From contig CAVWXH010000003.1 in NCBI GenBank assembly GCA_963758915.1, positions 292,895 to 316,894 of the forward strand: a stretch of DNA of 24,000 nucleotides, in the 5' to 3' direction. Below, in pieces: positions 3,462 to 8,699 of the stretch. The stretch is from an uncultured Methanomicrobiales archaeon. Lineage in GTDB: Archaea > Halobacteriota > Methanomicrobia > Methanomicrobiales > Methanospirillaceae. Position numbers and translations under genes: made by a program. How positions within the stretch are numbered: the first letter of the stretch is position 1; the number at the start of each line of letters is the position of its first letter. The notes under the pieces were generated by a model. It had not been told where the DNA came from. It was given only the letters and a program-made list of their open reading frames with translations, and did no database searches.

Positions 3462-4631
3462 TTAACAGAATGCTGACAGTGTGGACTGGTGCCCTTTCCC
3501 AAGCCCGGATAGAAGGGTACTTTCCTCGTAAAACCTGGCGGGCGGGAGTGAGAAACCGGACGTGAGATAATGGAGTGCACCCGATATTCCGTCAAACTCC
3601 TTTGGTGATGACGCCATAGCGTGCCTGACATTTTCCCTGACATTAAAAACACCGAGGGGAATATACCCCCGCCGGGCTTCACGAAGTATAATCGCCCCTG
3701 CCTGTTTTCCTTCTTTTTCAAGGGCATCGAGGACCGCCATCCTGCATGAATAATAACACCCTCCGACAGTAGAATACCCGTGTTTTTTCCGGTTTCCCTC
3801 ATGATCCGCAAAGATCATTTCCTCGCGGCCAAGCACGTGCAGAAACGCCTCGATCCATTCATACTGCCATACCGTGGGCATCAGCAGGACCGCATAATGG
3901 TTATTCAGGCTGTCAAATTCATGGACACGGTAACAGTCGATTGGGGAATGCTGCCTGACCCGGGAGAGTAAATGGTCCCCGATTATAGTATCGCACGCTG
4001 TGATTGACCAGCGCGTGGGGACCAGCTTTCTTTTCCTTCCCGTACCCATTGTCCCGGCAGACAATGCCTTCTGAATACTGGAGAACGGGACACCCTGGCG
4101 GTGCAGGTCTATAACTGCCCCGGATGCACCAAGATCCGTATCATGGTAGGCCCTCTCGAGGTCGGGGTCCCACCGCCCTTTTTCAATTTCAAATTGTTCC
4201 ATTCTTGCACTGGGACCATGGGGTGACGATTCCTCGGAGAACATCATACCGGCAGGAGGGGTTTCAAAAGTGACATCGCTCTCGACAGATGACGAGGAGA
4301 GAGCTATTTCCTGGAGTTTTTCCACGAACCGATTATCGATATCATCTGCCGCTACCCGTTGTTTCCCACGGACCAGGGACAACCGGTACCTGATTATCTC
4401 ATCCTGGGTAATCCCGGCGGGGATCCATGACTCCGGGGAGTCCAGGATCCTCGTATCCCCGTGGAATGCAGCAATGACCGGGCCGGCATAGACCTTTGGA
4501 TAGGCATGGCTGCCGATAAATACGGAGGGCGGTGAACTTCCCTCCAGCTCGCGACCTATCTCAACAGACCGCATATGAGTCGATAGCGAGTTGGTAATCT
4601 GCCTGAGGTATGCTCCTTTTCCGGGTGTCAT
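3462..4631 (-). CDS. Nre-family DNA repair protein (archaeal DUF650/DUF651 type)
   Basis: The N-terminal ...SPPSVFIGSHAYPKVYAGPV... is typical of the Nre/DUF650 family. The extreme C-terminus QSTLSAFC (3465-3488) resembles a PIP box (QxxLxxF). A T7 run on the minus strand (A7 at 3433-3439) follows the stop. Confidence 0.8.
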   Translation of the reverse strand: MTPGKGAYLRQITNSLSTHMRSVEIGRELEGSSPPSVFIGSHAYPKVYAGPVIAAFHGDTRILDSPESWIPAGITQDEIIRYRLSLVRGKQRVAADDIDNRFVEKLQEIALSSSSVESDVTFETPPAGMMFSEESSPHGPSARMEQFEIEKGRWDPDLERAYHDTDLGASGAVIDLHRQGVPFSSIQKALSAGTMGTGRKRKLVPTRWSITACDTIIGDHLLSRVRQHSPIDCYRVHEFDSLNNHYAVLLMPTVWQYEWIEAFLHVLGREEMIFADHEGNRKKHGYSTVGGCYYSCRMAVLDALEKEGKQAGAIILREARRGYIPLGVFNVRENVRHAMASSPKEFDGISGALHYLTSGFSLPPARFYEESTLLSGLGKGHQSTLSAFC

Positions 4632-7405: not shown

Positions 7406-7621
7406 TTATATTCTCTTGGTAACTGCCAGGAACAGGAGCGAAAGCCCTGCAACCAGGGCAATAAGCCCTATGACGTACACCACCCACCTCGGGACCTTCC
7501 CCAATAGTGACGAAGGCGGGGCTGTTGCACCCTCTACCTGATAATCAGGCGGAATATCAGAAGTTACTGAAAACACAACAGGTGTTTCCTCGAGCTGTCT
7601 GCAGGGGCGTGATGGCGTTTG
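7406..7621 (-). other. Out-of-frame continuation of the cohesin gene encoding a linker plus a C-terminal TM anchor with a basic tail
   Basis: My translation of the neighbouring minus frame gives ...EETPVVFSVTSDIPPDYQVEGATAPPSSLLGKVPRWVVYVIGLIALVAGLSLLFLAVTKRI* (stop 7406-7408). This frame has no ATG. It is followed by A7 at 7387-7393 (T7 on the minus strand). No T-run follows the annotated stop at 7557. Confidence 0.5.
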
Positions 7622-8177
7622 TCACAACATCTGCAGTTACGGTAACAGCAGGTGTTGCAGTGGTCACCACGGCAGTTGAAGGGCTTGTCACCGATATTCC
7701 ACCCGGCTTTACGACCAGTTGCGCAGTTGGCGTATCCGGGTTGATATACCCTCCATGGTCATCATCGATCCTGACATTCTGTATTTTCACATTTGAAGTA
7801 CCGGCTGCTACCGCTTCCACGGTTATCTTCACGAGCGTCGTCCCGCTTGCCCCGTCCGAGATTGCTTTGCCAAGGTCCACGGCACTTACCGTTACACGCC
7901 CGGCAGGGAGACTGCTGGTTTTACCAAGCTTTGCCCATGTAGGAAATGAAACACCTGTGATATTACCTACCGAGGGGTTGGTCAGCTGGAAGTCCAGCTG
8001 GTAACCCGACAGCCCGGCAGGGAGCGTGTTAATACTCAGTTCATATGTCACGGTTGAACCAGGCAGCAGGGTTACACCTGGCGGACTCAGGGTGAGGGTT
8101 GTCCCTTGTGACGCACTGACTGTACCGGACGCAGCGATCACCAGGGCCATTACAAGAAACAGCAGGAGGGTTTTCAT
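7557..8177 (-). CDS. Secreted cohesin-domain-like surface protein (206 aa as it stands; the C-terminus is probably disrupted)
   Basis: Signal peptide MKTLLLFLVMALVIAASGTVSA. Cohesin-like block ...YELSINTLPAGLSGYQLDFQLTNPSVGNITGVSFP...GRVTVSAVDLGKAISDG...TLVKITVEAVAAGTSNVKIQNVRIDDDHG..., then a T/V/A-rich linker. The ORF ends abruptly (…RGNTCCVFSNF*) without an anchor. Confidence 0.7.
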   Translation of the reverse strand: MKTLLLFLVMALVIAASGTVSASQGTTLTLSPPGVTLLPGSTVTYELSINTLPAGLSGYQLDFQLTNPSVGNITGVSFPTWAKLGKTSSLPAGRVTVSAVDLGKAISDGASGTTLVKITVEAVAAGTSNVKIQNVRIDDDHGGYINPDTPTAQLVVKPGGISVTSPSTAVVTTATPAVTVTADVVTNAITPLQTARGNTCCVFSNF

Positions 8178-8320
8178 GGTATCACACAGATGTACCTGGT
8201 CTTCCTTGGGAAGTCATCACTTCGGGGAATGCAGGAACAACCTTAATCAGATTGGTGGTGCCTGCATTGATAAAAATATCGATGGGAAACAGGCATTCTT
8301 GTCTGGTCTTAATGAATTAT

Positions 8321-8380
8321 TTCCATATTTATTTGATATATCTGAATATTCTGATATTTCGGATAATCTTATATTAGTAT
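8321..8380 (+). promoter_or_regulatory. AT-rich putative promoter/operator region for the AbrB-hgcAB operon
   Basis: The sequence is ttccatatttatttgatatatctgaatattctgatatttcggataatcttatatta. It holds a TATA-like tract, repeated TGATAT (8334-8339, 8352-8357) and CTGA(A)TATT repeats. A GGAG Shine-Dalgarno at 8399-8402 lies 6 nt before ATG 8409. Confidence 0.3.
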
Positions 8381-8408
8381 GACACCAACCATAAGAACGG
8401 AGTAATGA

Positions 8409-8696
8409 ATGAAGAAAAAGGATCCAGTGGACTATGGCTGCAGAGAAAAATATGCAGATTCCTGCAGGATCGAGGCAATTCTGACTGTCGATGAACGGGG
8501 ACAGATCGTTATCCCGAAGGAGGTACGGGAAACGGCACGGATGGGGGCCGGGGACAGGCTGGCACTTGTCAGCTGCATGAAAGATGGAGATGTCTGTTGT
8601 GTAATGCTCATCCACGCTGACCAGCTGACCAACATGGTCAGGAGCGCTCTCTCGCCCGTAATGAAAGATATTATCGGGGATTTCGGGGAGGCCTGA
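8409..8696 (+). CDS. AbrB/MazE/SpoVT-family DNA-binding protein with five cysteines, including a vicinal CC
   Basis: ...VDERGQIVIPKEVRETARMGAGDRLAL... is the swapped-hairpin SpoVT/AbrB signature. Cysteines are at residues 11, 19, 56, 63 and 64 (…DGDVCCVML…). The stop is 3 nt before the hgcA ATG. Confidence 0.8.
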   Translation: MKKKDPVDYGCREKYADSCRIEAILTVDERGQIVIPKEVRETARMGAGDRLALVSCMKDGDVCCVMLIHADQLTNMVRSALSPVMKDIIGDFGEA

Positions 8697-8699
8697 CTC

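Follow-up and report, generated by a model that had tools for sequence, protein, structure and literature searches.

Control of hgcAB expression matters for predicting methylmercury production, and the question raised by the locus described here is what a small AbrB-type protein, HgcC, does directly in front of the mercury-methylation genes hgcA and hgcB. We examined a 24,000-nucleotide stretch of DNA from an uncultured Methanomicrobiales archaeon (contig CAVWXH010000003.1; hereafter the window), in which a sequence-only reading had singled out positions 8321-8699, a span made up of the promoter region and the hgcC open reading frame (ORF), and had proposed the encoded protein as a third component or regulator of an archaeal hgc operon. 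Comparison with its relatives points to a broader role. Most of the closest relatives precede arsM, the arsenite methyltransferase gene, behind the same DNA motif, and HgcC is for this reason probably a metal- or metalloid-sensing repressor.

HgcC belongs to a named family and lies directly in front of hgcAB

Between the hgcC stop codon TGA (8694-8696) and the hgcA ATG there are just the three nucleotides CTC, and only 1 nt separates the hgcA stop from the hgcB start at 9895 (Table 1). The tight coupling to hgcA-hgcB described in the sequence-only reading is thus borne out, as is its claim that the 95-aa gene has a Shine-Dalgarno sequence of its own, while the position of the hgcA ribosome-binding site inside the 3' end of hgcC is indicative of translational coupling. 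Each of the three genes has a ribosome-binding site of its own. The same three genes (95, 397 and 119 aa) were found in independent gene calls on four public contigs that carry an identical HgcC protein. Because the flanking genes are divergent (7557-8177, encoding a secreted protein) and convergent (10387-10833), we take the unit to be hgcC-hgcA-hgcB, with hgcC as the first gene of this predicted three-gene operon.

Using profile models we found that HgcC scores 105 bits (cutoff 70) against the curated equivalog model NCBIfam NF040962, "near_HgcAB: HgcAB-associated protein HgcC", with residues 18-87 aligned to model positions 1-70 of 70. It is therefore a full-length, ordinary member of this family, and stands directly 5' of hgcAB as the family name says. 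The AbrB/SpoVT-type assignment made earlier also holds, with scores above cutoff for PF04014 (26.9 bits; gathering cutoff 24.7), whose Pfam name, MazE_antitoxin, is the top family name for HgcC, and for TIGR01439 (AbrB family; 37.1 bits; cutoff 28.3). Both PrlF models scored below cutoff on HgcC (PF15937, 15.4 versus 32; NF007429, 18 versus 125), and there was no match to the winged helix-turn-helix model PF01022 at E <= 0.1. Close relatives carry the NCBI name "HgcAB-associated protein" and the JGI names "antitoxin PrlF" and "AbrB family looped-hinge helix DNA binding protein", and an identical HgcC protein is already present in public databases. At E <= 1e-10 the family comprised 328 representatives of 50%-identity clusters among 1.84 billion.

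The gene has also been noticed in print. Zhang et al. (2023, ISME Commun, PMC10349881) described a gene annotated as abrB, prlF or mazE directly 5' of hgcA in 14 of 35 hgcAB contigs and in 8 of 31 confirmed methylators, six of these eight being archaeal, and proposed toxin-antitoxin control of archaeal hgcAB, with the antitoxin-like protein as the putative archaeal regulator. The window gene is the same gene. Both hgcC and its association with hgcAB are therefore already known from a curated database and from this study, so that the central idea of the sequence-only reading was right but not new.

A profile built from HgcC relatives matched SpoVT, Sulfolobus AbrB-like proteins and AbrB among solved structures. 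Likewise, Foldseek comparison of an AlphaFold2 (AF2) monomer model gave SpoVT, AbrB-N, Sso7c4 and MazE as the best PDB matches (probability up to 1.0, E >= 0.01), and the same model places a C-terminal helix at residues 70-89. Across 149 diverse representatives G31, Q32 and R40 are invariant and D28, R30, P36 and K37 nearly so, and all of them lie in the segment that corresponds, in the alignment, to the loop and helix with which SpoVT and AbrB recognise DNA.

The closest relatives of hgcC precede either hgcAB or arsM

When GTDB was scanned with each species represented by a single genome, at least 468 loci with HgcC relatives were found, and the best 80 were examined with the window HgcA, the window HgcB and a recurrent downstream protein as queries. 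This recurrent protein was identified as ArsM, a S-adenosylmethionine (SAM) methyltransferase, by a score of 344.6 bits against NF008823 (cutoff 263). The downstream gene on the same strand was hgcA, normally with hgcB, in 24 loci (6 archaeal, 18 bacterial) and arsM in 54 (11 archaeal, 43 bacterial), while two loci with less than 200 bp of contig left could not be assessed. All 78 assessable loci thus have hgcA or arsM downstream, on the same strand and within ~1.5 kb. It is immediately next in 70 of them, including 47 of the 54 arsM loci, and is separated by one intervening gene in the other eight (seven arsM loci and one hgcA locus). No toxin gene was present in the window, or as the downstream or intervening gene in any of the 78 assessable loci. 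Genes for an arsenate reductase of the low-molecular-weight protein tyrosine phosphatase (LMW-PTP) type, a DGC-domain protein, a flavodoxin and a disulfide-oxidoreductase recur nearby.

The bacterial hgcAB-linked loci belong to Nitrospirota, Syntrophales, Actinomycetota and "Deltaproteobacteria", and the arsM-linked loci include Methanothrix, Methanocellales, Methanoperedens, Dehalococcoidales, Syntrophobacteraceae and others. The closest relatives of the window HgcC come from metagenome-assembled genomes (MAGs) of Methanomicrobiales and Methanoregulaceae (81-91% identity), and the Methanomicrobiales clade of the window stands further apart, sharing 56-59% identity with the nearest arsM-linked protein. 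NF040962 separates neither group from the other, since its scores overlap (113-129 bits for arsM-linked and 105-123 bits for hgcA-linked proteins), and arsM-linked members are themselves named "HgcAB-associated protein HgcC" at NCBI, as in WP_258931033.1 (Desulfoferrobacter suflitae) and MEM2925187.1 (loci L060, L068 and L049; ids P0095, P0111 and P0112).

The HgcC family is therefore neither hgc-specific nor archaeal. An archaeal hgc regulator, as had been proposed, is too restricted a reading, as 18 of the 24 hgcAB-linked relatives are bacterial, and while homologues are not distributed at random with respect to hgcAB, "hgc regulator" is too narrow a description because 54 of the 78 assessable close relatives precede arsM. 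The NF040962 description is too narrow for the same reason, arsM-linked members outnumbering hgcAB-linked ones by 54 to 24 among the closest relatives.

In a rough neighbour-joining tree (91-column alignment) the hgcA-linked and arsM-linked proteins interleave. Because this tree is too poorly resolved for counting switches of cargo, exchange was judged by the identities of closest relatives and by comparison of DNA from two loci. For three hgcA-linked proteins the closest relative is arsM-linked, at 80-89% identity. Furthermore, in two Syntrophales-type genomes, an hgcA-linked locus (L041) and an arsM-linked locus (L038) share the upstream oxidoreductase gene, the promoter and hgcC, with 75-86% DNA identity between L041 1748-2177 and L038 5892-6326 (86% over 436 bp), and the homology ends ~70 bp past the hgcC stop codon. 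On this alignment the pair shows cargo exchange directly. In four arsM-linked loci (L012, L056, L074 and L080) arsM lies in the same frame as the hgcC stop, 1-10 codons further on, which is about the number expected by chance.

Three of the five cysteines are conserved in both groups

HgcC has five cysteines, C11, C19, C56, C63 and C64, comprising the N-terminal C11-x7-C19 and the vicinal C63-C64 pair that had been pointed out from the sequence, and the importance attached to them applies to three. C19 is conserved in 24 of 25 hgcA-linked and 38 of 42 arsM-linked proteins, C63 in 25 of 25 and 40 of 42, and C64 in 25 of 25 and 42 of 42. C11 and C56 are conserved in neither group, the usual residues elsewhere being Pro and Trp, respectively, and are lineage-specific. 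In the wider family, C64 is found in 137, C63 in 114 and C19 in 110 of the 149 best representatives, and many members have a disordered N-terminal tail with additional CC pairs.

C19 lies at the start of strand 1 and C63-C64 at the start of strand 4. Three-cysteine As(III) sites that include a vicinal pair are known from AfArsR (C95, C96 and C102) and CgArsR (C15, C16 and C55'), and among ArsR proteins three-cysteine sites have evolved several times, each time in another part of the protein (PMC11868830). By analogy, C19 together with C63-C64 matches the cysteine pattern of these ArsR sites. Thiol-based sensing by HgcC is plausible. In MerT and at the C-terminus of MerA, it is Hg(II) that vicinal cysteines handle.

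A 9-bp periodic motif overlaps the promoters of the family

The intergenic region upstream of hgcC is 231 bp long (8178-8408) and falls to 17-22% GC at 8300-8380, against ~50% around it. This tract had been called the only AT-rich, promoter-like one in the region, which is not strictly so because a second, milder block, ATAAAAATAT (~8270-8282, 35% GC), is conserved in orthologues and may serve the divergent secreted-protein gene. The block TGCCTGCATTGATAAAAATATCG (8258-8283), conserved in the window and in orthologous loci L001-L003, is probably the promoter of that gene, and a 15-nt inverted repeat (8228-8242 / 8254-8268) lies beside it.

Within the AT-rich tract four 9-bp units stand in register (Table 1). 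The dimer TCTGAATATTCTGA (8341-8354) is the sole match to TCWGA-N4-TCWGA in the window, where 0.10 would be expected, and is flanked in the 9-bp register by the degenerate units TTTGA (8332) and TCGGA (8359). Repeats had been noted here as TGATAT / CTGA(A)TATT; they are present but are better written as a 9-bp unit, TCWGAWTAW, and the suggestion that they form an operator is very likely correct, as a 9-bp-periodic TCWGA array is found upstream of family members in many phyla. The array abuts a TATA-like box, and the CGGATAA before this box may be a B recognition element (BRE). Both the TCWGA array and TATATT are conserved in Methanomicrobiales orthologues, with TATATT invariant in the window and L001-L004, and these orthologues also keep the leader ACCATAAGAACGGAG with the hgcC Shine-Dalgarno sequence. 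Further upstream, the window, L001 and L002 all have TTAATCAGATTGG, which holds an isolated TCAGA core; an inverted match to 8340-8348 was noted here.

Across the 78 upstream regions, which come from all phyla, the hexamer ATCAGA/TCTGAT is present in 64, compared with 6.9 expected from shuffles, and TCWGA cores occur at 2.09 per 150 bp compared with 0.30. Of 91 spacings between successive cores, 52 measure 9 bp, 20 measure 18 bp and four measure 27 bp, so that 76 of 91 (84%) are multiples of 9, and the family-wide unit has the consensus wTAwTCWGAwTAw. Two or more cores are found in 18 of 25 hgcA-linked and 33 of 39 arsM-linked upstream regions. Bacterial arrays are placed between, or immediately behind, a TTGACA -35 box and the ribosome-binding site and so cover the -10 box and the transcription start, while in archaea the array abuts or flanks the BRE/TATA element, as in tatTCTGAtttaTCAGAaaagtttaaatacactgataa of locus L072. 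The 784 kb of related loci contain 62 strict TCWGA-N4-TCWGA matches, of which 55 are no more than 260 bp 5' of the start of an HgcC-family match, a zone that makes up 2.7% of the sequence. The far dimer matches in L001, L008, L009 and L071 are in coding sequence and look like chance.

One bacterial locus joins the two cargoes. In L010 (Syntrophales MAG JALNVY010000023.1) hgcC-hgcA-hgcB is accompanied by a separate arsM 3.3 kb downstream that has no hgcC of its own, and the region before this second arsM (9360-9500) contains TTGACA, a 17-nt spacer and then TATATTCTGATTTATCTGATATAATTGAT, with a TCTGA-N4-TCTGA array over the -10 box. Because the second arsM carries the same array, one HgcC may control both methylation systems in this genome.

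A divergent family member with a four-unit operator was seen on metagenome contig Ga0074195_1000075 (L083, 603-1274). It has a single strand-4 cysteine (VCL in place of CC) and is followed by a 123-aa protein with AACCIPG that has a sub-threshold thioredoxin-like match only; as this was the sole match, an initial assignment of the neighbour as ArsD was dropped. TCAGAWWWW arrays on low-GC metagenome contigs (L081-L200) are mostly 9-bp coding repeats, rich in Ser, Asp and Asn, that are unrelated to HgcC.

HgcC as a proposed thiol-based repressor, and the alternatives

On balance, we lean towards HgcC being an autoregulated, thiol-based AbrB-fold repressor of hgcCAB with As(III) and/or Hg(II) as its effector, and we regard DNA-binding autoregulation, taken by itself, as likely. 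HgcC would be a swapped-hairpin DNA-binding protein of which each symmetric dimer probably reads one palindromic TCWGA core. Several dimers would sit on the tandem 9-bp units of the array touching the TATA-like box, and the C-terminal helix probably links them so that the 9-bp array is filled. Bound HgcC would block TATA-binding protein (TBP) and transcription factor B (TFB) in archaea, and RNA polymerase in bacteria, thereby repressing its own operon, and a thiophilic metal or metalloid bound at a thiolate site formed by C19 and C63-C64 would release it from the DNA. DNA binding, to which the periodic TCWGA array upstream of family genes points indirectly, repression rather than activation, the identity of the ligand and ligand-induced release are all parts of this scheme that we infer.

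The likeliest effector would be As(III), although it could also be Hg(II) or a methylated species. An As(III)-type ligand is favoured because two-thirds of the close relatives precede arsM, because nearly identical regulators serve either cargo, and because the sole hgcAB regulator tested, ArsR2 of Pseudodesulfovibrio mercurii ND132, an ArsR-like protein co-transcribed with hgcAB, responds to arsenic, as well as to S-adenosylhomocysteine (SAH) (bioRxiv 10.1101/2022.10.17.512643). Since the same regulator-operator cassette fronts arsM in most relatives, expression of hgcAB would be tied to the regulatory logic of arsenic methylation. More tentatively, and with a little less than even confidence, we suggest that the HgcC family, as AbrB-fold repressors that have a Cys3 site, represents a structurally new class of sensors for metals or metalloids, in which one portable cassette switches on arsM or hgcAB, and in some genomes both, with As(III) or a related thiophilic species. 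Such a class would sit outside the ArsR, MerR, CsoR, Fur, DtxR, NikR and CopY families; to our knowledge, the AbrB fold is not among the established metalloregulator families. Our search of the available literature found nothing tying arsM to AbrB-type proteins, and no account of the link of most members to arsM, of the conserved Cys3 pattern, of a 9-bp operator common to both groups or of cargo swapping.

Several observations weigh against this reading. The 80 loci are the matches most similar to the HgcC query and not a random sample of the family, and among 140 complete representatives of the wider family the N-terminal cysteine and the vicinal pair occur together in only 84, so the triad marks the core of the family and erodes in its distant members. 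Only two of the four units in the window have perfect TCWGA cores (8341-8345 and 8350-8354), and the array is located 5' of the TATA-like box, where activators can bind as well in Archaea. A metagenome search with the homotypic triple TCAGAW4TCAGAW4TCAGA returned 120 matches (median GC 33%, 57 of them inside long ORFs), of which four lie beside an HgcC-family gene; this family was the only recurrent neighbour, but the motif is too simple for specificity across metagenome collections. The AF2 monomer model is of moderate confidence overall, with a mean predicted local distance difference test score (pLDDT) of 69.6, rising to ~87 for residues 21-70. Lastly, our literature search found nothing on this protein beyond PMC10349881, and no paper that characterises HgcC or uses that name.

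The alternative that survives best leaves HgcC on the TCWGA array and gives the cysteines another task, namely sensing redox state through a thiol-disulfide switch, sensing a methylation-related metabolite, or holding a structural metal. The DNA-side evidence for it is identical to that for metal sensing, genes for pyridine-nucleotide-disulfide oxidoreductase, thioredoxin-like, AhpD-like and flavodoxin proteins recur near family members, and the response of ArsR2 to SAH is a precedent for metabolite sensing. We none the less consider it unlikely, since there are only two types of cargo, both of which methylate thiophilic metals or metalloids, with no oxidative-stress genes among them, and since As(III) sites classically combine a vicinal pair with one further cysteine. 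The methyl donors also differ, being SAM for ArsM and a methyl-corrinoid for HgcA, which makes a shared metabolite signal less obvious than a shared class of substrate.

Somewhat less probable again is that HgcC acts mainly as a metal or metalloid chaperone, by analogy with ArsD, or as an accessory "third component" that passes Hg(II) or As(III) to HgcA or ArsM, with DNA binding secondary or absent. The cysteine-rich N-terminal tails with CC pairs, which are like the N-termini of ArsM and of the window HgcA, would suit such a role, and the tight translational coupling favours matched amounts of the proteins. However, the invariant G31, Q32 and R40, and the nearly invariant R30 and K37, sit in the AbrB DNA-recognition segment, and the conserved periodic motif stands before hgcC itself. 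In work attributed to Parks et al. in 2013, the genes reportedly found to be necessary for methylation by ND132 and G. sulfurreducens were hgcA and hgcB alone. An obligate form of the third component proposed in the sequence-only reading is unlikely because most hgcAB loci are without hgcC, the gene being present in 8 of 31 confirmed methylators (PMC10349881).

The published suggestion that HgcC is an orphan or type II antitoxin (PrlF/MazE-like) whose autoregulated promoter hgcAB share, which is in keeping with the Pfam name, with the JGI name "antitoxin PrlF" on many members and with the proposal of Zhang et al. (2023), is very improbable, as no toxin gene lies beside hgcC in the window or in the 78 assessable loci, PF15937 scores below cutoff, and PF04014 spans the whole AbrB/SpoVT/MazE fold and not antitoxins alone.

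Comparison with known regulators

A repressor of this kind would resemble the ArsR/SmtB repressors (R773 ArsR, AfArsR and CgArsR) and ArsR2 of ND132 in being small, first in its operon and co-oriented with ars or hgc genes, in having a predicted operator over the promoter, and in having three conserved cysteines, two of them vicinal as in AfArsR and CgArsR; ArsR2 likewise links hgcAB to arsenic. However, those proteins are of the winged helix-turn-helix type and HgcC is predicted to be an AbrB swapped-hairpin barrel, so that any similarity would be functional only, and their operator is a single inverted repeat whereas the candidate operator of HgcC is a 9-bp tandem array.

With AbrB, SpoVT, Abh and Sso7c4, HgcC shares the N-terminal DNA-recognition fold and the motif D-x-x-G-x-V-x-I-P-K-E-h-R, and by analogy with the AbrB-like proteins it could plausibly form a multimer on extended AT-rich DNA. 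In contrast to HgcC, the known proteins of this group have no conserved cysteine triad or link to metals. The invariant Q32 of the HgcC family replaces an arginine of AbrB, which we take to be AbrB position 15, and the C-terminal part of HgcC is predicted to be a single helix and resembles the C-domains of neither AbrB nor SpoVT. MazE and PrlF belong to the same PF04014 superfamily and are also small, autoregulatory and first in two- or three-gene operons, but HgcC has no toxin partner, scores below the cutoff of the PrlF model and precedes genes for methylation enzymes.

Other features of the locus

The features read from the window are collected in Table 1. The sequence NVWCAAGK is present in the window HgcA. 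Residues 1-75 of this protein (8700-8925) form a cysteine-rich extension, SSCGCGPGACCP...SCGCSCNSNG, and the HgcA model begins at residue 75. This extension is kept in the closest orthologues (L001 and L002) and resembles both the CC-rich N-termini of ArsM and the N-terminal tails of the HgcC family. A scan of 8100-10500 for sigma-70 promoters and hairpin terminators, a type of scan ill-suited to Archaea, gave counts equal to those of shuffled controls.

Table 1. Coordinates, in window positions, of the genes and candidate regulatory features of the hgc unit.
Feature	Position	Strand	Description
Isolated TCAGA core	8246-8250	.	Possible auxiliary site, ~90 bp 5' of the main array and near the divergent gene
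Candidate operator	8332-8367	.	Four 9-bp units in register, starting at 8332, 8341, 8350 and 8359: TTTGATATA, TCTGAATAT, TCTGATATT, TCGGATAAT
TATA-box-like TTATATTA	8369-8376	+	Putative archaeal core promoter of hgcCAB; abuts the operator array
Shine-Dalgarno-like GGAG of hgcC	8399-8402	+	6 nt 5' of the ATG; read from the sequence
hgcC	8409-8696	+	95 aa; AbrB/MazE/SpoVT-fold with a C-terminal helix; protein MKKKDPVDYGCREKYADSCRIEAILTVDERGQIVIPKEVRETARMGAGDRLALVSCMKDGDVCCVMLIHADQLTNMVRSALSPVMKDIIGDFGEA
Ribosome-binding site GGGGAGG of hgcA	8685-8691	+	Within the last hgcC codons, 8 nt 5' of the ATG at 8700
hgcA	8700-9893	+	397 aa; corrinoid mercury-methylation protein; NF040863, 427 bits (cutoff 275); PF03599 (CdhD) match
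hgcB	9895-10254	+	119 aa; ferredoxin with 2x[4Fe-4S] and a C-terminal CC pair; NF040864, 118.3 bits (cutoff 99)
T5 run after hgcB	10303-10307	+	Possible, weak candidate for an archaeal terminator; read from the sequence

Elsewhere in the window, the archaeal Nre gene is found at 3462-4631; together with the nearest relatives of HgcC, it assigns the window to a Methanomicrobiales archaeon. On the minus strand, 10881-14636 holds genes for an APC-family amino-acid permease and a 768-aa Orn/Lys/Arg decarboxylase back to back, a pair that resembles a bacterial acid-resistance pair and is kept beside the hgc operon on public contigs L201-L204.

Implications

The only hgcAB regulator tested so far is an ArsR-like protein from one Desulfovibrionaceae lineage, and HgcC would be a second, already named, family of hgcAB regulators that the comparative results make directly testable. 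The handles for this are the TCWGAWTAW operator at 8332-8367, the cysteines C19, C63 and C64, and a ligand hypothesis of As(III), MAs(III) or Hg(II). As the name "HgcAB-associated protein HgcC" is carried by many genes that front arsM, it could mislead metagenomic surveys that use it as a marker of mercury methylation. An evolutionary and regulatory connection between the methylation of arsenic and that of mercury has been proposed before, and these results lend it independent weight. If the reading of HgcC as an arsenic-type sensor is true, methanogens, Nitrospirota and Syntrophales would natively control hgcAB by an arsenic-type response and not by a response to mercury.

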